The notes under the pieces: generated by a model
The model's database searches: none
What the model was told of the DNA's origin: nothing
The model's input: the letters and a program-made list of their open reading frames with translations, nothing else
Program-made: the position numbers and the translations under genes
DNA from: Hydrolagus colliei
Lineage: Eukaryota
Assembly (NCBI GenBank): GCA_035084275.1
Contig: CM068742.1
Location: 57,846,001 to 57,910,000, forward strand
Direction: 5' to 3'
Length of the DNA: 64,000 nt
In this document: piece by piece, positions 8,738-64,000 of the stretch
How the letters are laid out: each line of letters begins with the position of its first letter
Position numbering within the stretch: the stretch's first letter is position 1

Positions 8738-8981
8738 ATATTGCTGTTAAATTAATAAACAAGATAACAATGGATATTAAAAGATAAGTAGCAACAAGCC
8801 AACAAAAAGTATATTGTACTTTTAAAATCATCACGGCCGCTTCAAAGGAATATATTCCATATTGCTGTTAAATTAATAAACAAGATAACAATGGATATTA
8901 AAAGATAAGTAGCAACAAGCCAACAAAAAGTATATTGTACTTTTAAAATCATCACTGCCGCTTCAAAGGAATATATTCCAT
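8738..8981. repeat. 121-bp tandem duplication
   Basis: ATATTGCTGTTAAATT... starts at 8738 and at 8859. One difference seen (CACGGCCG versus CACTGCCG). Confidence 0.95.
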
Positions 8982-11956: not shown

Positions 11957-14089
11957 TTCATATTAACAAAAATGCTTATGTAATTGATTAATCAATCCTC
12001 TCTTTCTCTAAAGGAAGTGATCAACCCCTTCTTGCTAGGAATAGTTTCATTGCACTGCATAAATACTATAATTAAACTATACAGTATGTGCTTTGAGACA
12101 TTGATAAGATGTGAAAAGCACTATATCAAATCCAAGGATCATTATTATTATTGTTATTATATTTGGTTGTGTATGCTACTAATTTGTGTTGTTCTGAGGA
12201 TCATTGATTATTCTTTGCTTTGAACATGCCTTCAAGTAAACTCTTAAAATAACTTGAGCTAATTCCTGCTGTAATCCAACCTTCAACTCCTATTGTACAC
12301 ATATTCAGTCCTGACATCTTGGGTCTTGTGGTATGAATTAACCAGACATACACCCTAGGTAACTAGATCATTAAGCAGCTGAGGTTCTGCGTAATGTAAA
12401 GAGCATGCATAACAATGACAGGGTTGGAAACTCTGAGTGCTTTGTTACATTGATTTTAATAGACAAAGCTATTCTGGTATACAGGAGTGGAACCTGTTTT
12501 AATGGTACAGCGTTCAAATCATCTGTGATTTGAGTTCATATTGGTGAGTCATTGACAAGCAAATTAGTATTTAGTACTGGAATCTAGCAATTAATTTTAT
12601 AATTGGTGTCTTAAAACCATTGCCTATTTAACAATGCAGAATGGTTATATTTGTGATCATTGGTTTCTTTAATACAATCTTGTGGTGGCTCATATTGAGC
12701 TTAAAAATGATCAGATCATTTCCTGTAAGTTAACAAGTTGTCCATATGTATGTACAGAATGACCAAAAATGGTGATACCATTACAATGTCTAATAAGTCA
12801 TAAATAAATGATTATATGTTTCCTATGCCAGTATATATAAATAGTACAGTATATGTATTTTAGATCATAGGATAGGTATCACAATGTTTTGGTTACTCTA
12901 TAGTAACTGCATGTTGGGAAGTTAAATGAAATAAAGTGAACCAAAGGAATTGATAGCAACAAATTGGAATAATATGTAAACAGCTTTGTTCAAGGAGAAA
13001 TAGCCTTAAGCTATGAATATTTTACATTGTTTCTTAATTAAATTTAAAAAAGGAAGAATTAAACAGCATGAACATAAAATTTTGAAAGATTAGAGAAGAT
13101 AATCCTTATGCATTAATTATATTTGCAAGATAATGTGTTGGCAAACATTCCAAATATTGAGAATATATTTCATTTTTTGAATAAGTTAATGCAAATATAC
13201 ATGAATGAGTAGTTGTTATGCAAAATATTTGCAGGCATGTATTAGCCTAAACATCTAGCACATTCTAATACAAAACCAGAAATGTGAAGCAGTTTGCATC
13301 AATTGCAAAAGGATTTTCATATTGAGATCAGAAGTCAACTATGAAATGTGAGACAAAATGGCTCATACAATAAGCTATTGATCAGGTCACTGAATGAAGT
13401 GGAAGAAGGGTGCATTATGGTTGAGCAATTATCTATGCCAGGGCTTAACATAAGAAGTATGATTACCATGCACATAATATTTTGTGACTGCAACTCTTGG
13501 AAAATAAAAGTCAGCATTTTAAGCTAAATGAGATAAATAAGAAATAAAATAGCTTCATTAGAAATTGTCATTTCAAATTGAATGCTCTGGCACCTGTGAT
13601 CTGTATCAATACTGGTTGTAATCATATAAGAAATATGCAACATATATTTTCTGAATATAGACTGAGCCTTTAGAGCAACATGTAATTGGAAATTAGAAAA
13701 CAGATTAAACGATCTGGATAAACTACAAATGAACATTGACATTTATCAGATTTATATCCTCATTACATTGAAAGTAAGTTTCAAAACTGAGTCTTTATTT
13801 ATGTCAGAACTAACTAATTACTCATGCTGGTTTTTCTAAGTATTAATGGTTAATTAATAGTTAACTAATTCTAATGTCTGTTAAGAGATCACATCCTGCG
13901 CCTGAAACATATTTGTCATTGATTTTTCAATAGCATATATCTATTAATTTGTATGTGTGATTTACCAATCAGTAAATTATACTGTATTGGGATTTGAATG
14001 CATTTGGCATTATAAATTCACAGCTGTAAATGTCAACATATATATATATTAACCGCCAAAAAAAGGAAGTACAGTAGTTGATAAATTTT

Positions 14090-14560
14090 CCAAATTTAGA
14101 GGGCAAATCTTCAAGTCCAGGTGGATGCAAAGTCTTAAAGAAACTGGGAAGGAGATAACTGAGGCACAAGCATTTATATTTAAGCGTTCTGTATAGAAGA
14201 AATTTGGAACAGAGAATAGGGCAGCAAAAGGAATACTCTCTTTTTAAAACAAAATCTGATTCAAAAACTACATTAGCTGATTGTTTGAGGAAAGGTTGGA
14301 GTCTACAATAAAAGATGAAATAACTAAATAACTCAAGAGGGAGAATATGATCACAAACAACCAGTATGGATTTATGAAAGGAAGGTCACTCTTGACTAAC
14401 CTTATCGAATTTTTTGAAGAAACAGATAAAGTAGATAAAGAAAATGCAGTGGATGTGGTATTTATTGATTTCTAGAAGGTTTTCGATATGGGACCGCATT
14501 AGAGGCTCATGGTTAAAATCAGGGCCTATGGAGTTATGAAAGAGGTAGCAGAGGACATAT
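14090..14560 (+). mobile_element. Old CR1 ORF2 (RT N-terminal) fragment
   Basis: Reads QYGFMKGRSLLTNLIEFFEE...AVDVVFIDF*KVFD...RLMVKIRAYGV. More degraded continuation is likely near 14950-15130 and 15465-15620. Confidence 0.85.
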
Positions 14561-15152
14561 GAACCTGTCTTCCTGTCTGTAGCTCAGACACATGTCCCTT
14601 CCCATTAAACGATGTTCCACCAGTTTGAAGTGCAGAGTTTAAGCAGCAGCTGCTTGCTGCTCTGCAGGCCAATCAAGGTGGATTTCAGCCGCTGGACGTG
14701 TGAACATGTGTTCATGAACTGGGACTTCAGGTAACCCCTTCCTGCAGCTGTCACCCGAAGCTTGAATTTCCTTATCAGCTATCTGGCAGACACATGCCTT
14801 CAGCGTGGTACGAGGATCTCTCGCTACACTTATTATTTCTGAAAAGATCATAAAAGGTCAAGTGTTGAGATTTGTTTCCCCATAGGAATGGCATTGAACA
14901 AGCATTTACATAAGCCTAAGACAAAATGTTCTGCTATTTTATTCCATTGATATGAAGCGCATCTTGCAGACAATGTTGCAGCTTTATATTAGTCACCAGA
15001 CACATAAAATACTGTGTTCTATTCTAGTCAGAAATTTACAATATAAAAATATATTGGGATTGAAACAGCAGCAAAAATCAACATGGTTGCAAATGGGATA
15101 AATTGTGAAGATAGACTTGATAATGTGGGCACCCCTATTTATCCTGTACTTT

Positions 15153-19494: not shown

Positions 19495-19711
19495 AATATT
19501 AGCCAGGACTTCAAGAGAGTTTCCTTGCATTTCTAAAAATATTGCCAAGGGGTCTCTAATATCTACCTGGACCATCAAACCAAATGTCAGTTAACTTCTC
19601 ATCCAACAATGCAGTATTTCTTCTTAACTGCACTCGAGTGTCAGGTCTACATTGTGAGGTCAATCCCTGGAAGGGATTTTGTACCCACAAGCTTCCGATT
19701 TAGAAGCAAGA
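19495..19711 (-). mobile_element. Old Deu-domain SINE interrupted in its tRNA head by the CR1
   Basis: Deu-like core (CTCATCCAACAATGCAGTATT...ACTGCACTCGAGTGTCAGG). The head appears to resume at 22934 (GAGTGTTGAGGCAAACTGG; compare 27270-27300). Confidence 0.6.
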
Positions 19712-19793
19712 TTCATAGAATCATAGAATTTTACGGCACAAAAGGAGGCCATTCGGCCCATCTAGTCTGTGCCGGCTCTTTGAAAAGAGCGAT

Positions 19794-22690
19794 TCAATCC
19801 CACTGCCCTGCCCGCTCCCCATAGCCTAATAGACCTGTTCTCCCTAAATAAAGATCTAATTCCCTTTTAAAAGTTGTTATCGAATCAGCCTCCACCACCT
19901 TTTCAGGCAATGCATTCCAGATTCGAACAACTCGCTGAGTGAAAAAAATTCTCCTCAGCTCCCCTCTACTTCGCCTTGAAACTATTTTAAATCTGTGACC
20001 ACGAGTCACAGATTCGCCCACGAGTGGAAATAGTTTTTCTCTATTTGCCCTGTCGAAACCCCTCATGATCTTATAAACCTCTATTAGGTCTCCCCTCAAT
20101 CTTCTCTGCTCCAGAGAGAATAACCCTAGCCTATCTAGCCTCTCCTCATAGCTGAAGTCCCTCAATCCTGGCACCATCCTAGTAAATCTTCGTTGTACCC
20201 TTTCCAATGCCTTCACATCCTTTCTGTAGTGTGGTGACCAGAATTGAACACAGTATTCCAGCTGAGGCCTCACCAAAGTCTTATAGAGGTTAGTCAGCAC
20301 TTCTTGACTTTTGTACTCTATACCCCTATTTATAAAGCCTATTATCCCATATGCCTTCTAAACAGCCTTGTCTACCTGTCCTGCCACCTTCAACGAGTCA
20401 CTAACACAAATCCCCAGGTCTCTCTGTTCCTTCACACCATTTAAAATTGTACTATCTAGCCTATATTGCCTCCCTTCATTTCTTCTCCCAAAATGCATCA
20501 CCTCACACTTCTCTGCATTAAACTTCATCTGCCATGTGTCTGCCCACTTTACCAATTCGTCTATATCCTCTTACAGATGGCTACTATCCTCCTCACTATT
20601 TACTATTCTCCCTAACTTAGTGTCATCTGCAAACTTGGAAACTGTACTCCGTACACCCAAGTCCAGATCATTGATGTAGATTACAAACAGCAATGGTCCC
20701 AAAACTGATCCCTGTGGCACACCACTGCTCACTTCCCTCCAATCTGAAAAACAGCCGCTCACTACAACTCTCTGCTTTCTGTCTCGCAGCCAGTTGTGGA
20801 TCCACGCTGCCACTGTCCCTTTTACGCCATGGGCCTTTAATTTCATAATAAGTCTCTCATGTGGCACTTTGTCAAATCCTTTTGAAAGTCCATGTAAACT
20901 ACATCAACTGCGCTACCATTATCCACCCATTCCGTTACCTCATCAAAAAATTCTATCAGATTTGTAAGGCAAGATTTGCCTTTAACAAATCCATGTTGAC
21001 TGTCCTTTATTAGCCTATATCTTTCTAAGTGAAGATCTACCTTGTCCCTGATTATGGACTCTAGAAGTTTGCCCACTACCGACGTTAGACTGACTGGTCT
21101 GTAGTTACCAGGCTTGTCCTTCTGCCCCTTTTTATACAAGGGAGTAACATTAGCTATCCTCCAGTCCTCTGGCACGATCCCTGTGTCCAAGGAAGATTGA
21201 AAGATCTTGGCCAGAGTCCCTGCTATTTGCTCCCGTGCCTCCCTTAGTAACCTAGGTGACTTATCCACCTTGAGCGACGTCAACCTTTTTAGAACGTCCT
21301 CTCTGGTTATAATTATTCTATCCATTTCTCCTACCCTCTCCTCCAATACCATGGCATTGGCTGTATCCTTTTCTTTTGTGAAGACAGAGGCGAAGTACTC
21401 ATTCAGTACATCAGCCTTGCCCTCTGCCTCCACAATGAGATTTCCTCCTAGGTCCCTAATTGGCCCCACCCTATCCTTGACCAACCTTTTACTCTTAATA
21501 TGTTGGTAAGAAACCTTAGGGTTCCCCTTAATCTTACTCGCTAATTGTTTTTCATGCAGTCTCTTTGCCCCTCTAACTTCCTTTTTTAGTTCTATCCTAC
21601 ACTTCCTATATTCTGCTTGGTTCCCTTCTGAATTTTGTGCCTGACACTTATCAGAAGCCTCTTTGTTTTGTTTTATTTTGGCCCCGATTTCCTTAGTCAT
21701 CCAGGGAGGTTTGGATGCCTTACATTTCACCTTTGTAGGGATGCTTTTGACCTGTGCCTGAACTATCTCCTCTTTGAACGCTGCCCACTGCTCGTTAGTT
21801 GTCTTACCTGCCAATTTTTCTTTCCAATCCACCTTGGCTAGGTCCCACCTCAACTCATTGAAATTAGCCCTTTTCCAGTTGATTGTCCTCACCTGTGATC
21901 GTTCCTTATCCCTTTCCATAATTATTCTGAATCTAACGATATTGTGGTCACTATTCCCTAGATGCTCACCTACAGAAACCTGTTGAACTTGCCCTACCTC
22001 ATTTCCCAAAACTAGATCCAGCAATGCTTCTTTCCTCGTTGGACTGGAAACATACTGATCAAGAAAGTTGTCTTGCACACACTTCAGGAATTCTTCTCCC
22101 TCCTTGCCCTTTACTCTACTATTCTGCCAGTCTCTGTTGGGATAGTTGAAGTCACCCACTATCACTACTCTATTAGCTCTGCATTTCTCCGTGATACGCT
22201 TGCAGATCTGCTTGTCTATCTCCTCCCCACTATTTGGTGGTCTATAGTATACCCCTAACAGTGTAACTGCACCTTTTTTATTCCTCATTTCTAACCAGAT
22301 AGATTAGGTTTTTAGTCCTTCTTCCACCTCGTTCCTTTCTAAGGCAGTCACTGAGTCCTTAACTAAAATTGCCACCCCGCCCCCTTTTCTCCCTTCTCTA
22401 TCCCTCCTGAATACATTATAACCAGGAATGTTCAACTCCCATTCCTGCCCATGCTGGAGCCAAATCTCTGTTACTGCTATAACATCATATCGCCTCGCAG
22501 CAACCTGAGCCTGCAGCTCACCAATTTTATTTCTCAAACTTCGTGCATTTACATACATGCACTCTAAGGCACAAATTACTTCCTCTGCACTTTTCTCCCG
22601 TCTTACCCTTACCCCTGTCCTCTTTATTACCCCTCCCGTATCTGAACTACTGTTCAGTTTCCCACCCTCACCCCCCGGGATTAGTTTAAA
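19794..22690 (-). pseudogene. CR1 ORF2 (APE endonuclease plus reverse transcriptase), disrupted
   Basis: Motifs YVNARS, IAVTEIW, VYYRPP, GDFN, LLDLV, SDHN, YRPVSLTS, QHGF, PQGSVLGP and FADD. Premature stops at 22304, 20571 and 20358, a frameshift near 20880, and a probable 7-aa deletion in KSP[GPDGxHP]RLL. Confidence 0.95.
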
Positions 22691-22933
22691 GCCCCCCCCC
22701 ACAAAACTCGACAACCTCCCTGCAAGGAGCTTGGTTCCAGCCCTGTTCAGGTGTAACCCATCCATTTTGTACAGGTTCCACCTACCCCAGAATTGGTCCC
22801 AATGGTCTAGGAACCAGAAACTCTCCTTCCTACACCACTTCTCCAGCCATGCATTGATGTGCCTTATTCTAGCATTCTGGAACTGGCTTGCTCGAGGCAC
22901 TGGAAGCAACCCAGAGATCACCACTCTGTTGGT
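22681..22933 (-). pseudogene. C-terminal part of CR1 ORF1 (SGNH esterase-like domain)
   Basis: RVVISGLLPVPRAS...INAWLEKWC...FLDHW...DGLHLNRAGT. Confidence 0.88.
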
Positions 22934-23374
22934 GAGTGTTGAGGCAAACTGGCTTTCCAACTAAATTCACATGTGTTCATATCTGATGTGGCCTAAGTAT
23001 CTATTATGATATCCATCTTTAATTTCTGCTGTTGGAATGAAGGAGAACGAAAAACAAACTCAAAAGTATCAATTTAGCTTTGATTGCGTTATTTTATAAC
23101 CTTTAAAAACCAGCAGTGTTCTTAATAGTTGTAAGCAGGATTAGAGATATCTAGTAGATTGTTGGGGTACAGCAATAAAAGCTAGGATCACTGCTATCAG
23201 AACACTACCACATCAATAGTAAATTAGTTGAAAACTGATCCACTTACATTCAGACCAGTTTCTTGAAGTTCAAAGTGTAAAATCTTAATAATATCTCTCC
23301 ACCATTGCAACTGGACATTTTGGAGAAATTAGAAATCTGCCATGAACTCTATTTTTTATGTTTTCACCCGTTAT

Positions 23375-24039
23375 GTCTTTCCCCACCTCCGCAACATTTC
23401 CCTACTGTGCCACTACCTTACCCCCAAAGCCGCTGAAACCCTCATCCACGCCTCCATTACATCCCAGCTCTATTATGCAAATCCCCTGCTGGTAGGCTTT
23501 CCCAATTCCTTCCTCCACAGGCTGCAGATAATCCAGAATTCTGCGGGCGGTGTCCTATACCATTCCAAACTCCGTGACCCCATCTTCCCCATCCTTCCCC
23601 ATCCTTCCCCTTTGCTCCCCATCATCCAGAGGATCCAATTCAAGATCTTGGTCCTCACATTTAAAGCTCTCCACAATCTCACCCCACCCTACATGACCTC
23701 TTATCCTCTTACCAACCTGCCCGCCCTCTCTGCTCAGCAGGCTTTGGCCTGCTCCATGTCCCCCAACCCACCCGACCAACTATTGGCGGGCCAGCCTTCA
23801 GCCACTCTGCCCCCAACCTCTGGAACTCCATCCCAAAGTCCGTCTGCCTCGCTGCCTTCCTGGCCTCCTGCAAGTCTCGCCTCAAGACTCTCCTCTTCGA
23901 TGGATTCATCAGAAAATCCTTATCTCCCCCTTCCCTCCCCCACATCCTCAGCTCGGGTCTGAAGCAGTAACTGTCCAGCGCCTTGGGACGTCCTCCTGAC
24001 ATGAAAGGTCCTATACAAATGTGATGTTGTTATTGTTGT
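23375..24039 (+). mobile_element. L2 3' fragment
   Basis: HLRNI...AAETLIHASITSQLYYAN...LQIIQNSA...IQFKILVLTFKALH, with the L2 tail. Confidence 0.9.
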
Positions 24040-30092: not shown

Positions 30093-31450
30093 ACAACAGC
30101 AACAAAACAAAATTACATTTATAGAATATCTTTCATGTCAGGAGGATGCCCCAAGGTGCTGAACAGTCTGGGGTCAGTACCCAAGCATGGGGGAGGGGTG
30201 GGGTAGGATTGAAGGGAGGCAGAGAGGTGGGAGGGCAGCTGGAGGTTTGCTTGAAAAGGAGGGTCTTGAGACCGGCCTTGATGGAGGCAAAGGATGAAGC
30301 GAGGCAGAGAGAGACTGCGGAATTGAGTTCCAGAGTATGGGGTCAGAGAAGCTAAATGCCCAGCCACCGATGGTAAGATGAGTTGGGCGGGAGAGCAAAC
30401 TGGAACCCTCTGAACGGAGATAGTGGGCAGGTTGGTAAGGAGGCAGCAGGTTGGAGAGATAGGATGGGGCAAGGCCTTGGATGACCTTGAAAGAGAGGAC
30501 AAGGATCTTGATTCTATTCTCTGGGGGATGGGGAGCCAATGGAACCAGGTGAGGATGGGGGTGATGGGGTTGCGGAGCCTGGTGCGGAGCTGCATAGTTT
30601 TGGATGACCTGCCACTTGTGAATGGAAGAGTTGGCAATAACATTGAGGAGGAGTTTCTGTAGTCAAGCCTTGATGTGACAAATGCATGGTGAGGGTTTCG
30701 GCAGCCTGAGGGATGATGAGCCACTGGTGGAATCTGGTGATGTTGGAGAGGTGGTGGAAGGCAGTGCTGGTCGTGGTGCGAATGTGGGGGAGAAAGACAC
30801 ATGGAGTGAGGTGGAGTGTACAGCCGTGGATGCAGATGCTGTAGTGCCTGAGGTGTGGAGGTGCTGACCCTGGCCAATCATGAGGGCCTCAGTCGTTTGG
30901 ACGATCAACTAGAGAAAGTTGTCTCTCATCCAGGACTTGATGTAGGACAGGAAGGAAGCCAGGATGCCAGTAGTCCTGTAATTGAGGGTAGAGGTGGAAA
31001 GGTAGAGTTGGGTGTCATCCGCATACATGTGGAAATTTACCTCATGTCTGTGGATGATGTCACCGAGGGGGAGCATTTAGAGGATGAAGGAGGGGACCGA
31101 GGACAGAGCCCTGAGGATCGCTGCACAAGACAGTTCGGGGGCTGGAGTAAAAACCGTTGGCAGAGACGAAGTGGAGACGGTTTGAAAAATGGGACCTGAA
31201 GCAGTCTAGGATGGAACCTTGAAGGTTGAGATGGGAGGAGAGACGGTGGAACAGGATTGAATGGTCTGCGGTCAGATAATGATATGGTGGATATGGTAGT
31301 GATGACAGAGGAGGGAATGACAGTTTTGAAGTTGTGGAAGGAGGGATAGGTAGGAGTCAGTGTAGTGTGGAGATGGGGAGGTGGTGGAAGTTGGGTGGGC
31401 AGTGGCAACTGAGCAGCATCTTCTCGCAGTGGGATTCAAAGTAAAAAATC
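30093..31450 (-). mobile_element. Longer L2 fragment with internal deletions
   Basis: (CAA)n tail at 30093, HAFVTSRLDY, and RT motifs [11 protein letters not shown] (~31005-31037) and PQGSVLGPL (~31090-31115). Confidence 0.9.
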
Positions 31451-35175: not shown

Positions 35176-36227
35176 ACTCCAACAATGATTACTTACCTAA
35201 TAAATAATAATAATAAAATAACAATAATGATAATTCTGAAAATGGATATAACTTTTTTATATCGAGATATCTCAAAGCACTTCACAGTGATTTCTGTTAA
35301 AGTATACAACTGTATTTATAGGTTAATATGACAGTTAATTTACACACATAGTAGCTTACAAACAGCTACGAAGAGAATGACTGAAGATTTTTTTTCTCTG
35401 TGTGATTACTGGCCAAGACACATGGAGAAACAACATTTTTTGAAAAGTTTTATAGGTTCTTTAATGCCCTTTGAATAGGCAGATGGAACGTTAAGATAGC
35501 TTCATCTTAAAGATGATGTTTGAGATTGTTCTATTCTAGACCATTAGAACATAAACTCATTCAAAGAGGCATCTCCCAAATTGGCATAATATCTTTTACT
35601 TGTCAGGAATTTAAAGGGTGTTCCATTCCCTGCATAAAGTTCACATCGATATTACCCACAAGGGTGACACCATTTTTAACTCTTTGGATATGATTGTTTA
35701 TCTACAAACGTTTGTAGAAAGGTTTAACTGATTTCTAAATATAGTCAAAAATACCTTGCTAACTTCAAGAGTTTGAATGTCATTGCTATGTACAATTGAA
35801 GGTTGTTTAGTTTTACTGTTTGGTTGCCTTTGAGAAGTATAGAAGTATAGAGGATTATATTGATTTATTTTGCATTTTATTTCACACCAAATGTGTGAGG
35901 AGTGAGATTGTCATAAACAGCAATTTTTGCTTCAGTAAAGTGGGGTAGGTTCTGTCAATTCAGATACTAAAAATGCAGTGTTCCCTCAGCCCTATATCGG
36001 ATTGTCAGCCTAGACTCTGAGTTTTAAGTTCCAACATAGGGTATGAATAAACAATCTTCTAACTCAATAATTCGAATGCTACTAATTGATCCAATCACTT
36101 GGACTGCTTTTTCTAACAGGCAGAAACTCTTCAGCATTTGTACAGATATCATCTGTTCATTTATATTAACTTGAGAGTATTTTTTTAAAAGAAAAACTAA
36201 CTGTGCACTTGGTGTGCATTCTGAAAA

Positions 36228-36583
36228 GTGTATCTTTTCAAATCCCTCCACTCCTCTGCACCCCTCTATCTCGCTGATCTCCTCTCCCCCCGACCCAGCA
36301 CCCGCTGCCTTCGCTCCTCTGGGCCTGGCCTCCTCCATGTCCCCCGAATCCTCCGCTCCACACTCGGCGGTCGTGCCTTTAGCCACTACGCCCCGAGGCT
36401 CTGGAACTCCCTTCCTCACTCGCTTCGCCCCCTCTCTTCCCAGTTTCAGGTCACAGTTGAAGACCTCTTCGACCGAGCTTTTGGTCACCTTCCTGCCCCT
36501 GGCTCGGTCCTGGTATCCGCTACTGTGAAGCGCTCTGAGACGCCATCCAGGGCGCTATATAAATTGAAGTTGTTGTTGTTGTT
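36228..36583 (+). mobile_element. L2 3' fragment (second subfamily)
   Basis: FKSLHSSAPLYLADLL...LRSSGPGLLHVPR...GGRAFSHYAPRLWNSLP, with a (GTT)n tail. Confidence 0.9.
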
Positions 36584-36612
36584 GATCTCATTTTAGTTAA
36601 CATCAGCAAATA

Positions 36613-52324: not shown

Positions 52325-53386
52325 AATATTAATCCTTTCATTTGATATAGCGCTTTTCACATCTTCTAGACATCTCAATGCGCTTCATAGAATATACTGT
52401 AATGTAAATTGACTGTATATTTGTGGGTGAAACACGGCAGCCAATTGCGCACAGCAGTGTCCCACAAACAGTCATGATTCATAATGACTAATTTATTATT
52501 AATATTTTTCAAGGGATTATTATTAGGAGGAAGGACTACTGAAACTTGCCCAAAGTTTTGCCCCACCTGGCAAAACCTTGGGCAAGTTTTGCCCCACCAG
52601 GTCTCTCGCTTGCAAGGCGAGTGTTTTAACCAGCTTCCTTCAGCTAAATTTGACAAGACAGAAGGTTCAACCCCCAATTATCCTTCCTTCCACACATCCA
52701 GTCCCTCACCAGCACTGCTTTCTTCCATCTCCGACGCATTGCCCGTCTCTGCCAATATTTCTCCCCAAAAGCTGTTGAAACCCTGGTCCATGCCTTTGTG
52801 GACCAGGGTTCTATTCAAATGCCCTCGTCGCCCGTCTCCCCTCCGCTACAATTCATAAAATCCAGCTCATACAGAACTTCACCGCCTGCATTCTCACCCA
52901 CACCAAACTCAGCTTCCTGATTACCCTAGTCCTTCCTTGCCAGACTGCACTAGCTCCCTGTCCCAGAGAGAATCGATTTCAAGATCCTCACGCTTGTATT
53001 TAAATCCCTCCACTCCTCTGTACTCCCCTACCTCTCTGACCTGCTCTTTCCTTACAATAATACCTGTTACCTTCGTTCCACCGGGTCTGGCTTCCTCTTT
53101 ATCCCCCAAATCCTCCGCTCCACGATCAGCAGCTGTGCCTTCAGCCACTATGCCCCGAAGCTCTGGAATTCTCTCCCTCACTCCCTTCGCCTCAATCCCT
53201 CCTTTCCTGTTTTCAGGTCTCGGCTAAAGAACTTCTTTTCGACCGCGCTTTTTGTCACTTTCTTTCCCCCCCTCTGGCTTGGCCCCGGGATCCGTTATTG
53301 GGAAACACTCTGAGACACTGTCCGGCATGGAGGGCTCTATATAAATCCAAGTTGTTGTTGTTGTAACCACTGAGCTACAGGACTCC
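52325..53386 (-). mobile_element. Full-length tRNA SINE split by an L2 insertion
   Basis: SINE tail-to-head runs 52325-52632 and resumes as TAACCACTGAGCTACAGGACTCC at 53364-53386. Confidence 0.9.
52633..53363 (+). mobile_element. L2 3' fragment with a 6-bp target duplication
   Basis: L2 ORF remnants (HIQSLTSTAFFHLRRIARL), a (GTT)n tail, and TAACCA on both flanks. Confidence 0.9.
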
Positions 53387-58689: not shown

Positions 58690-59160
58690 CAACAACAACC
58701 TGTACCTATACAGTACTCTTCAGGCAAGTAGCATATTGGATTACTTCATAGCAATGTAATCTGATGCCAAGATGGCAAAGGGTGGAAGTGACCAAAAGCA
58801 CAATCGAGGAGCAAACTGTTTTACGTGTGATTTGAAGATGGACTGGAAGTTAAGGCAAGGAGTTCCAGAGAATATGGCCATAGCTGCTGAAAGCACAGCT
58901 GCCAATTGTGAAGTGAAGGGGTATGAGAAGCGTACACTCCAGAAGAGCTGAGCCATCTCAACAAAGGTGGGTGGTACAGGAGTGGAGTGTGAGAGCTCGG
59001 AGAGGTAGGGAGGTGCCACAACATTTGAAAGAGATTTGAAAGTGAGGATCTTGAAATTAATCCCCTCTACAACAGGGAGCCAGTGGAGCCCAGAGAGAAC
59101 TGTGCCAATGGAGTTGTGGAGTCTGGTATGGTTGAGGACACAGGCGATGGAATTTTGAAT
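58690..59160 (-). mobile_element. Old L2 fragment
   Basis: AAGGAGTTCCAGAG...GCTGAAAGCACAGC and GTGAGGATCTTGAAATT...GGGAGCCAGTGGAG are reverse L2 C-terminal motifs. Confidence 0.75.
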
Positions 59161-60936
59161 CCTTTGTTTGCAGTTGATATGTGTGGTCTGTGGAGGTAAT
59201 GTACATCTGCTAGTGTTCAGCTTATTGAAAATCTGATGAATGTAGCACCCTTCACCTAAGATTATGTCTTGGAGCGCTTTACATTGCGGAGTTGAACTAA
59301 TAATACACCAATAAATAATTGTACATACATATTTTAAAATGAATAATCTTAATAAAATTAATATTCACTTATACCAGTATCCATATATATTTAGTTGTGA
59401 AATATTATTTTCATAAATTCAACCATGCCAATTAGCAGAAACAAGTTATTTAATAGAATTCAAATCAAAGATTACCAGAATATTATTTTGGAAAAAGATC
59501 AGAAAAGGTCTTTGATGCCCATCTGGCACCAGTAAAATAAAGCTTCTATATCCCTCAATTGATTTCTTTGCTAAATAGCTTTTCAATTCTCTCTAGAATT
59601 TGCTGACACACCTCTGCTCTACCTTTTCCCTGGGTAGACCATTTCACATATTCTATAAAAAAAAAATTTAGACTGTCTATTCTTCTGAGCTTGAGACTGA
59701 ATGCAACAAGGTCCTTACTGAAATATGGTAATCAGAAGTATACATAGAATTCCAGTGCACTCCAGTGCAATGGTATTCCAGTGTTGTGTAGAGTACAAGT
59801 TTCAATATCACTTCCAGTGACATATGGTCTATTTGATTAGTGAAATGTCTTATGTTTTTGGAACCCTTTCTCCTCTTTGCATTGAGTAATCTCTATTCTT
59901 TAAGGCTCACAACCTATGCACGTTTCCTAGATCCACTGCAGGGAAACTCTTGTTATTTTAGCAGACAGAAAAATATTACAAACCTTACTATAACTAGGCC
60001 ACACAAAAGGGTCACCATTCCTGCTTCCAGTCATCAGGTTGCCTCACACATTCTTGTTAAGCAATCAGATTCCTGTGTATCTATATGTACTGTGTGCATG
60101 ATGTTCCTTTGATTCCTTTCCTGAAATGATATGCCAGCTTGGTGAAGAATTGATTCACTTTCCTTCACAAATCACCTTATGCAGTAATATTTACAGTATT
60201 TAACTTAAATAGAATGTTTTTCATTGTTTAGATGGACTATTGACAATGTATGCTTTTTTAAAAAAAAACTAGATGGGAACAGCTTGCAGCTTTCATTGAT
60301 CCAACAGGGTCTAATATCCATTTCAAATGGAATTAGGATTCAGGACATGGTCTTCTGGTACATTAGCAATAGAGTAATGATTCAGCTGGATGTGGTGCTG
60401 CACATACACAAGAAGCTGATGTCAATATCTTAGTGAAGTGTTAGGTGCTGCACACAAGAAGTAATGTTAGCAGCATGCCCTGTATATTAGTATACGTGCA
60501 CATAACAAATGCTCTTCAATTGTAATCCACATGGGTTTAGATGGTTAATTTGCAGCAGGACCCTGGTACACATTCTGTGGTACTCAACTCTTCACTCTTA
60601 CGAATCTCCCCCCAAATTGGCCAATATTATGTAAGCAGCATGTATCCTTCTGGTGAGAAAGCACACACTCCACAACAGAAAAATAGAAACTACACACGGT
60701 AAAACATGCACACACAGGGGTAAGGTGAAGTGAAGAGGCAAAGGAACCATGGTTGGAATTCCTCTCTCTAACCTGTGAATGATTGTTTGCTCTAGTGCCA
60801 ATCACCAAGGACCTTTCACCTGAACTGTGGTTCATTTTTGCTATTTGGTATTCAGTTGAAGGGAATTCGCTTACCTTTAACAATATTTCCCAAAGCAACA
60901 GTATTAGAGTCTTCCCTTTGTGTTTGTACTTGATTC

Positions 60937-61253: not shown

Positions 61254-63170
61254 ACTTTCTGCTCAATATCCAGTAAGCATTCCTACAATGATAGTAAGTG
61301 TGAGGCTGAGTTGAAATAAACAAGATAAATCCAACGTAAATCTGTTTATTGCAGCTTCACCTTACTGCAACATAAGGCTGAATAAAAATAATGGGGAACA
61401 TTTGAAATAATCACAATTAATAGAGAATGAAGATAAAAGAAACCAGTGTTTATAGATAAATCATTTGAAGTAGTGCCCACCCCTCCTGGGTCACATTGAT
61501 GTCTGCTCTTGCTGACATACTTGTTTTTTCAGATCCGTTCTATTTGGGTGATTTGTGGACGACATTGCATAAATAATGCTCCTGTGTGTTTCAAGAAAGC
61601 AACAAGAGAAAAGCATTGATTGCAGATTTGTAGATAAAAAGGAGCTCAGGGAGAGGTTTGCTCGTGTGTGCTTTAATAAAATCGGATATAGATCCGTGGA
61701 CATTTTGTGCCTTTTAGTAGATGAAATCCTAAAAAGAAAATGATTAAGCGCAGCATGAGTCAAACATCCAGAAAAAAGATTTTGTGTAATCTCCAACCCC
61801 AACACCGATAAATAGGGTGCTGTGCTATCAAAATCTGTTACTCAGTCGATCTTGCTTTCATACTCTATACTGTCCTGAAGTGTGACATAATTTGTCAGCT
61901 TGGTGAGCAATTGATTATTTTGGTTGACAAATCACCCTATTCAGTAATATTTGCCATGTTTTACTTAAATAAAATGGCTTTCAATATATAGATAGACAAC
62001 TGAAAATTCATGCTTTTTTCAGGGATCTGAACTATTTGCAGCTTTCATTGATCCAACAGCGTCTAATACCCAGTGTGCATTTCAAATAGAATTAGGAGTC
62101 AGTGTAGAGTGTTCTGCTACTTTAGTAACAGTGTATTGCTTCAGATTAATAGGATTTTTTTCAAGGACAAAGTATTCTTTGCTTCATGTGAACTGGCCGT
62201 AGTATATAGTGCACAACATGGTGCAAGTATTGTATAGATAACTGTCCAAAGTAACATCTTATTTCCTATCAATATTTGACTGTGCAATTCTTTGTGTGCT
62301 GAATGCTGACACCTTAGTCAACAGAAAGTGAATGGTAAAATATTGGATCAAGATGAGGCCACTGATCAATACCAAAATGCACATTCTGTTCATCTCAAAC
62401 GTCAGCAGTGCTTTGTAATTGCTGTCTTGGGCCAGAAAGATGGTCACCTGATGGTTTGAAATGGCTTGTAAATCAGACCACTGTGCTGTTTACGACTGAT
62501 GGCCAACTGATCAATTTATTGGTGAGGAGAAGGGGTTGATGGAGCTTCAGGGAATTATACAACATGTCTTGCTTCTCACAGCTGTTATTTTGCCCAGTCG
62601 TCTCTCATGGTGGCAACATGTTGGTAATGAAAACACCCATTTATCTTTTTGATTATAAAACTCCTGACTGCATATTGCTTAGTATCCTCTTGATATGTTG
62701 CATCTATAAAACTAGATTATGGCCATTGGCAAATTGCCAGCATGAAGCACCAGCGACTTTCAGAACAACAGCAAATTGCATTTACATAACATCTTTCAGA
62801 TGAGGGGCTGTCCTTATTATTTATCTAGCTTAGTCCACCCTGTCTATTCAAGCTTTTGCTTATACATTATAAGCAGATGCCTACACCTTTGAACCGTGTC
62901 AAATGACTTGCTGGTCAACCATCAACAATGCCAACTGCAGACTCGAATGTCTCAGTGGAACTAGTTCAAGCCCAGATAATCTCTACCTAAAGAGAATATA
63001 CATATTTCTACAACAACAACTGCAAAAGTATCCACACCAAATGGAAACTTCTATGCATTCCACATATACATAGAAATTCCAGAGATATTTATTTGAATGG
63101 AATGTCCGTATTCTCCCCAGGGATGCATTCTGCTTGCTGAATTCCTAATTGTCTAATTCTGGAGAGTATT

Positions 63171-63505
63171 ACAACAACAACAACAACAAAATTACATTTA
63201 TAGAGTGCCTTTCACGTCGGGAGGACGTCCCAAGGCACTGAACATTTAGGTCAGGACCCGCGCGGTGGGGGGAGGGGCGGAGTGTCGGGGTAGGGGGAAG
63301 GAGAGTAGGAGAGGGGTGAGAGTTAGGGGTGGAGCAGAAGGCACGGTTGAGGAGGAAGGTCTTGAGACCTGCCTTGAAGGAGGAAAGAGAGGAAGCGAGG
63401 TGAAGGGAGTTGCAGAGTGTGGGGGCAGAGAGATCCTGCCGATAGTAGGGTGGTTTGGGTGGGGGACATGGAGCAGGCCAGGCACAGGTTGGCAAGAGCC
63501 AAGCC
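63171..63505 (-). mobile_element. L2 3' fragment
   Basis: (CAA)n tail and SSLSSFKAGLKTFLLNRAF. Confidence 0.9.
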
Positions 63506-64000
63506 TTGTGAACCCCAAAATGTGCTTTAGGGTACTCCTGGGTTCTAACCACCTAAAATTGCCATTGAAAACATTGACAAGCCAGCTTCAACTCTGTCAT
63601 CAGCAGTAGAAAAGGTGAAGACCCTGAAAATATCATTGAGGCCTATGGTGAAAACCCACTGCATTCTGATTGAAAGTTCTGTCAAGATATAATCATTTAA
63701 TGAAACAGACTCAGTAGGCTGAATGATCTCCTCCTTTTCTTGGTTTCTGATATTCATTTTTTGATCCTATATTCAGATATGTCATACTGAACCTGCCCCA
63801 TTATGGCATCTACTCACTCAATTTCCTTCCTTTCAGTAAATACGGAAAGTCTCCTTCAATACTCAGCAAGGCACTTGAAGATTTAAATAGATGTTCACAG
63901 GATAAAACATTTCCTAATTCAGCTGAAAGGGTAATTATATCATTGTCATGGTAAGATAGCAATAAATTAATGTTTCCTATATTGTCATTTAAGCACAAGG

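Follow-up and report, generated by a model that had tools for sequence, protein, structure and literature searches.

Synthesis of the second open reading frame (ORF2) of LINEs is usually explained by reinitiation. For L1 and SART1 this is the mechanism described: ORF2 of the bicistronic RNA depends on the translation of ORF1, and a restart at an AUG or an overlapping UAAUG yields a separate ORF2 protein (PMC2881922 and PMC3708506, in the sections available). Among APE-type non-LTR elements, ORF2 of TRE5-A and TRE3-A from Dictyostelium, which belong to another clade and kingdom than the element studied here, is stated to need a −1 frameshift (PMC5911963, a review). The heptamer U_UUA_AAC is among the most shift-prone in eukaryotes, and −1 sites of the coronavirus class and of LTR-retroelements present it in the phase X_XXY_YYZ, with a structural protein upstream and the polymerase in the −1 frame (PMC5009743); in the available parts of that review CR1 goes unmentioned and LINE ORF2 is treated as not frameshift-expressed. 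G-quadruplexes (G4s) set 6–8 nt past UUUAAAC, the optimum spacer, gave ~7% shifting in vitro in reporters engineered with four-G3 motifs (PMC3919603, in part). As for CR1-group elements, these are described as the dominant retrotransposons in most vertebrates (PMC13343379, in the parts available). A word search of the main text of the same paper for frameshift, overlap, translation, start codon and reinitiation returned none of these terms. In the literature on LINE ORF2 translation we found no statement of the mode used by CR1, and in that on CR1 and non-LTR ORF2 translation no frameshift proposal for CR1; a remark in the CR1 descriptions of 1997 and 2003 is possible. The portions of PMC1965478, PMC6609765 and PMC4255032 at hand contain nothing on CR1 frameshifting.

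The window, a stretch of 64,000 nucleotides from Hydrolagus colliei (CM068742.1, positions 57,846,001 to 57,910,000), carries on its minus strand a LINE copy that is truncated inside ORF1 and whose ORF2 is broken by three stops and by deletions of 21 bp and 1 bp (Table 1). By its architecture and by the likeness of its junction to consensus rows labelled CR1, rather than by RT phylogeny, the element is a CR1-clade LINE with an esterase ORF1. Full-length ORF1 of the family has 304 aa with an N-terminal Cys-pair (zinc-finger-like) region; in the intact copy L141 it matches PF13472 (E 6.8e-11), and ORF2 contains the APE endonuclease followed by the RT (PF03372, PF14529, PF00078). Structure comparison of the modeled ORF2 APE with the L1 endonuclease (1vyb) gave Z 22.6 and rmsd 2.8 over 211 aligned residues, and the best ORF1 match is a Callorhinchus protein (53%). 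A 3′ stem-loop and a short tandem-repeat tail are present, and 5′ truncation is frequent, the ORF1 start being retained in 17 of 80 sampled copies. The family thereby shares with canonical vertebrate CR1 LINEs the esterase ORF1, the APE plus RT ORF2, the 3′ stem-loop, the short tandem tail and the junction motif discussed below (PMC13343379, in part). Two metagenome scans found no relatives, and a pattern for the APE start of another family gave 0 matches.

Elsewhere in the window, fragments of another dispersed repeat with open frames lie at 23333-23999, 30119-30888, 36225-36596, 52859-53227, 58741-59364 and 63169-63552; we take these frames to resemble the C-terminal part of an L2-type LINE (those scanned had no Pfam match). 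A 121-bp tandem duplication (99% match) occupies 8738-8981.

Table 1. The CR1 copy and the parts of its ORF1/ORF2 junction, in window coordinates.
Feature	Position	Strand	Evidence or remark
CR1 LINE copy, 5′-truncated	19709..22927	-	blastn, 97.9% identity to intact family copy L141; Pfam
ORF1 3′ end (SGNH/GDSL esterase)	22681..22927	-	Pfam
G9 run	22692..22700	-	family length 8; one additional G brings the two ORFs into a common frame
Slippery heptamer U_UUA_AAC (TTTAAAC)	22684..22690	-	in ORF1 phase in G8 copies
ORF1 stop TAA, immediately 3′ of heptamer	22681..22683	-	family layout
G-rich tract, 7 nt past heptamer	22661..22676	-	candidate stimulator
CTGAAC/GTTCAG hairpin	22642..22657	-	minority variant, not conserved
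−1-frame linker, 40 codons	22571..22690	-	AUG in no frame; predicted disordered
Predicted strand β1 of APE endonuclease	22547..22570	-	residues 41-48 numbered from heptamer; first AUG 22558-22556, mid-strand
ORF2 (APE + RT), broken	19794..22690	-	stops 22303-22301, 20573-20571, 20360-20358; 21-bp deletion near 21255; 1-bp deletion near 20875
3′ UTR stem-loops and ATTCTATG-type tail repeats	19710..19800	-	fold z −3.66, 0/200 shuffles as low

An earlier note on this DNA, made from the letters alone, had read the junction on the minus strand as TTTGT, nine Gs, a C (at 22691), TTTAAAC, TAA and a G-rich tract, followed by the hairpin arms and a TCCCG/CGGGA pairing, and the letters are indeed so. 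The nine Gs of this copy create a single 218-codon open frame containing both the esterase and the endonuclease Pfam families; since the copy is dead, this in-frame fusion is without function. The family, comprising 640 flank-anchored junctions, is young (median 0.8% from the column majority) and is not built on a single fused ORF: exact junction contexts number 379 with eight Gs (G8) against 58 with nine (G9). In the G8 copies, ORF1 ends with Ala-Leu-Asn-stop, as the note had predicted, with U_UUA_AAC in phase; the linker is open in the −1 frame and contains stops in both other frames. An open −1 frame of ~972 codons, covering APE and RT, extends from the heptamer in 7 of 20 long copies (each of them G8) and in 17 of the 80 copies of a position-ordered sample (13/40 G8 and 4/40 of the 58 G9). 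Since 6.5% of shuffled linkers are likewise open, one open linker alone is weak evidence. Judged by composition, TTTAAAC would fall at a given place with a probability of 4e-5. Inspection by eye of the first 100 flank-anchored copies showed the heptamer intact in 99, a figure that says little in so young a family. This layout, together with the conservation described below, makes it probable that ORF2 of the family is produced, as the note had proposed, as an ORF1-ORF2 fusion by programmed −1 frameshifting on U_UUA_AAC in a Gag-Pol-like manner.

The best-surviving alternative, which we nonetheless consider improbable, is termination followed by reinitiation as in L1 and SART1, whereby ORF2 would be a separate protein whose start is Met45, a non-AUG codon or, in some families, an overlapping UAAUG. 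Its appeal lies in the precedent of those described LINEs and in the position of Met45 (numbered from the heptamer), which is the first Met of the −1 frame in 61 of 80 copies and, at 122 nt past the ORF1 stop, the first AUG in any frame, in a weak context with T at −3 and +4. As the earlier note had observed, the ORF2 frame is without a Met up to the first endonuclease motif. A Met at the same place, three residues before the APE Asn, recurs in the sister of the window family, one older family and Xenopus models, and two shark consensus rows have the stop-start TAATG (PMC13343379 supplement, in part). The linker of two older families also contains a Met in frame. In the window copy, TAA is followed by TCC, excluding the overlapping UAAUG of the SART1 type; and, as a point of difference from L1 and SART1, the CR1 overlap sits on a conserved slippery heptamer. 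Against reinitiation stands the absence of Met45 from other families, which have Leu, Ile or Val at this place. In one older family (four copies) no Met precedes the APE motif. Across the families compared, an AUG ahead of the endonuclease is not conserved. The predicted fold is also at odds with a start at Met45: an AlphaFold model of the −1 frame (pLDDT 81; 12 sequences) has residues 1-37 disordered and β1 spanning 41-48, with Met45 in the middle of this predicted strand, and a start there would therefore cut it. Solved APE-family folds align from residues 36-42 (50 entries, among the matches listed), and exonuclease III has three more residues ahead of the place matching Met45. Reinitiation further leaves unexplained why the linkers of related lineages (135, 126 and 111 nt) differ in multiples of three, and why the synonymous positions of the heptamer are fixed.

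This fixation was assessed in divergent copies retrieved through the ORF1 codons for Asp-Gly-Leu-His-Leu-Asn and not through the heptamer, with the Leu codon of the window family excluded (91 matches against 28 for a reversed control). An exact TTTAAAC lies ~24 codons past this anchor in 12 of 16 loci with tblastn support as CR1 (from the first 30 loci), and in 24 of 36 after adding 20 loci picked by eye. The codon supplying the first U specifies Ala, Cys, Gly, Asn, Val, Pro, Asp, Ile, Ser or His; its first two letters vary, whereas its third is T in 31 of the 33 loci that depart from the heptamer by no more than two mismatches. Compared pairwise, the more distant families agree at only ~25–60% of four-fold sites (one representative copy each, with small counts), yet the heptamer is fixed at its three free positions, for which element-wide codon use gives ~0.016 per lineage. 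The heptamer is thus kept at the nucleotide level beyond coding need in families whose synonymous sites are near saturation. At the protein level, Leu-Asn or Leu-Asn-Tyr forms the C-terminus of 38 of 48 ORF1 homologues, which come from sharks, rays, chimaera, coelacanth, a teleost and frogs. The residue before Leu-Asn is G, T, C, A, S, D or Y and in 0/38 cases E, K, Q, M or W, residues that occur 22 times at position −2 and 15 times at −3, with Glu dominant there; it accordingly always has a codon that can end in U. These 38 proteins are related, so that 0/38 overstates their independence (0.2 if only 7 are independent).

Consensus rows from the PMC13343379 supplement (first 400 letters per row) extend the range of the motif. 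Its nine-letter form occurs there 23 times, and of the 22 occurrences classified, 16 lie at an ORF1 end: alligator, crocodile, bowfin, frog, coelacanth, chimaera, rays, sharks and one teleost row labelled Crack, with species taken from the row codes. Four further rows are unrelated elements and two are dogfish CR1 rows (SquAca_CR1-18 and SquAca_CR1-3) that also have the nine letters in the 5′ UTR, where the motif could have been captured along with a junction or could serve a second function. Starting instead from the ORF1 anchor, the motif was present in 7/7 CR1 rows with anchor and junction visible, among the matches listed. The heptamer is therefore retained well beyond the window family, in divergent families, homologues and consensus rows alike, and by these comparisons it is kept at the ORF1 end from sharks to crocodiles.

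Two observations accompany these comparisons. Several lineages (L104, L105, L107, L110, L036, L053, L059, L077, L078; P0004) place a Tyr codon (TAC/TAT) after the heptamer, mostly followed by the stop, so that with the stop shifted by one codon the heptamer plus TA is still kept. CR1-like proteins labelled as coming from a plant (Tanacetum) and from a bacterium (Carnobacterium), P0050 and P0052, are likely vertebrate contamination of those assemblies.

That the motif is kept for some other reason, with its likeness to a slippery site incidental, seems to us very unlikely; it might then be bound by a protein, as RNA or as DNA, or ORF1 might need Leu-Asn at its C-terminus. The palindromic core of the motif, the conservation of Leu-Asn as protein and the second occurrence in the dogfish 5′ UTRs speak for such a reason. 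Yet a peptide constraint frees the codons, whereas TTA and AAC are fixed along with the T ahead of them; the phase matches X_XXY_YYZ exactly, and the initiation of ORF2 would be left without an explanation.

The reading register that programmed frameshifting predicts was sought in other CR1 families. The sister family (30 copies, 84–90% to the query) shows the −1 register by column majority and by modal distance (117 nt in 9/30, 24 nt less than in the window family), with noise per copy (13, 12 and 5 by mod 3). Among the consensus rows of the PMC13343379 supplement, judged by eye, that of the catshark is open in −1 from heptamer to APE and that of the chimaera is in register with two stops; the others are too gappy for a register reading. 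Four older families each have one mostly open linker frame of 60–75 codons, which in majority alignments falls in +1, 0, 0 and 0, where hypervariable G-runs after the heptamer mask the true register. In two of these four, ORF1 ends by majority on a double stop, which argues against readthrough. Junction G-runs expand after insertion in old copies (L241-L270, L032-L110), with a modal +4 nt upstream in the sister family, and this expansion hides the register in consensus building.

The G-run ahead of the heptamer in the window family varies in length. Counted from coordinates, runs of lengths other than 8 and 9 comprise 24 short matches (5:1, 6:3, 7:20) and 52 long ones (10:24, 11:11, 12:8, 13:5, 14:2, 18:1, 22:1), a smooth fall-off with an expansion bias and no excess of in-frame (3n) lengths; an in-frame enrichment hinted at by the first 100 rows was dropped once the full lists were available. 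A fused G9 subfamily was likewise rejected: G9 copies are scattered in a FastTree reconstruction of G8 and G9 copies (81 rows, with one long misaligned row, L175, left in), where G9 takes 22 changes against a shuffled mean of 27, five of them forced by starred branches, and the best of 39 informative columns as a G9-diagnostic site has p=0.003, none being fixed. G9 is real as a class in read-derived contigs, amounting to ~14–15% of family depth in two samples (depth ~2,000 against 13,000–14,600 for shared words and 29 for unique flank), in agreement with the assembly; among these contigs none joins unique flank to the G-run at the window locus, so it is the class and not this locus that they bear out. 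In contigs of two related organisms one G is lacking and a substitution lies inside the run, which thereby retains the length of 8. G9 is thus recurrent neutral homopolymer slippage, here in a dead copy. A CR1 copy also underlies a gene model from a stingray (P0002), whose name, 'hydroxyacid oxidase 2 isoform X1', looks like a mis-annotation; its esterase runs in frame into the APE at Gly-Gly-Phe-Lys-Leu, a fusion of the kind found in the window copy. Polymerase slippage on G8, yielding G9 transcripts that would code for the fusion directly and drive retrotransposition, could draw on the 58 G9 copies beside 379 G8, their reality in read contigs and this stingray fusion, and is largely refuted, with hardly any likelihood left, by the smooth run lengths, the 22 changes with no diagnostic site, the lack of a G-run before the heptamer in most other families and the interrupted runs of unchanged length in the two related species.

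For programmed frameshifting, the RNA around the heptamer is of interest as a source of stimulation. The hairpin and the TCCCG/CGGGA pairing listed by the earlier note are present in the window copy, but as a stimulator we rejected them: the hairpin is complete in only 9 of 80 sampled copies and broken in two related organisms, and the region downstream of the heptamer folds no better than shuffles (z −1.3 to +0.4). Comparison of local folds with shuffles found no conserved secondary structure there, and the junction has no Rfam match. What recurs is a G-rich tract: in 31 of 33 divergent copies the first GGG falls 5–12 nt past the heptamer, and 21 of the 33 score 1.2 or more in G4Hunter, compared with 0 and 2 for control windows. 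Like the G4-stimulated reporters, the junction joins UUUAAAC to G-tracts, and the 7-nt spacing of the window copy is within their optimum; unlike those engineered four-G3 motifs, only 12 of 33 divergent CR1 copies have four GGG tracts within 53 nt, a count that G-run expansion inflates (PMC3919603, in part). Pairing of the downstream tract with the 3′ end of the element is not supported (the tail duplex, −15.0 kcal/mol, ranks 66 of 194 windows in one copy; the 3′ tail strand is tied up in its own stem-loop). A splice or branch-point reading of CTAA/CTAG was discarded on inspection, the sequence downstream being purine-rich. The 100 nt upstream of the heptamer (22691-22790, minus strand) form two hairpins (z −1.94, 7/200 shuffles) that could be an upstream modulator.

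In the mechanism we propose, most ribosomes would stop after Leu-Asn and release the ORF1 protein, while a minority would slip back by one base on U_UUA_AAC, presumably through tandem slippage of tRNA-Leu and tRNA-Asn, and continue through the linker into APE and RT to give a fusion product of ~1,270 residues. The pause may come from the G-rich tract 5–12 nt downstream, possibly as a G-quadruplex or a protein-bound G-run, together with the adjacent stop, and the 40-codon disordered linker would connect the esterase to the endonuclease. With the viral and LTR sites the junction shares the heptamer, its X_XXY_YYZ phase, the upstream structural protein and the polymerase in the −1 frame; it differs in its non-LTR host and in having a G-rich tract where we found neither pseudoknot nor stable stem-loop, and the CR1 shift is deduced from sequence (PMC5009743, in the parts available).

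The junction feature itself is real and well supported by the comparative evidence. A broader and more tentative extension, which we regard as possible and rather doubtful, is that esterase-type CR1 LINEs across jawed vertebrates make their RT as a Gag-Pol-like fusion via a U_UUA_AAC −1 shift conserved since the split of sharks and bony fish and stimulated by a short G-tract (G-quadruplex or protein-bound) with no pseudoknot, which would make it a natural and ancient frameshift driven by a G-tract, in the retrotransposon that dominates among vertebrates. If frameshifting is indeed used, one seven-letter signal would fix the ratio of ORF1 to ORF2 and the esterase ORF1 would be tethered to the polymerase. 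The definition of an 'intact CR1' would change, and an ORF2 annotated from its first Met would be cut inside the endonuclease. It would also guide the design of CR1 retrotransposition assays and place at hand many natural variants of a vertebrate frameshift signal.
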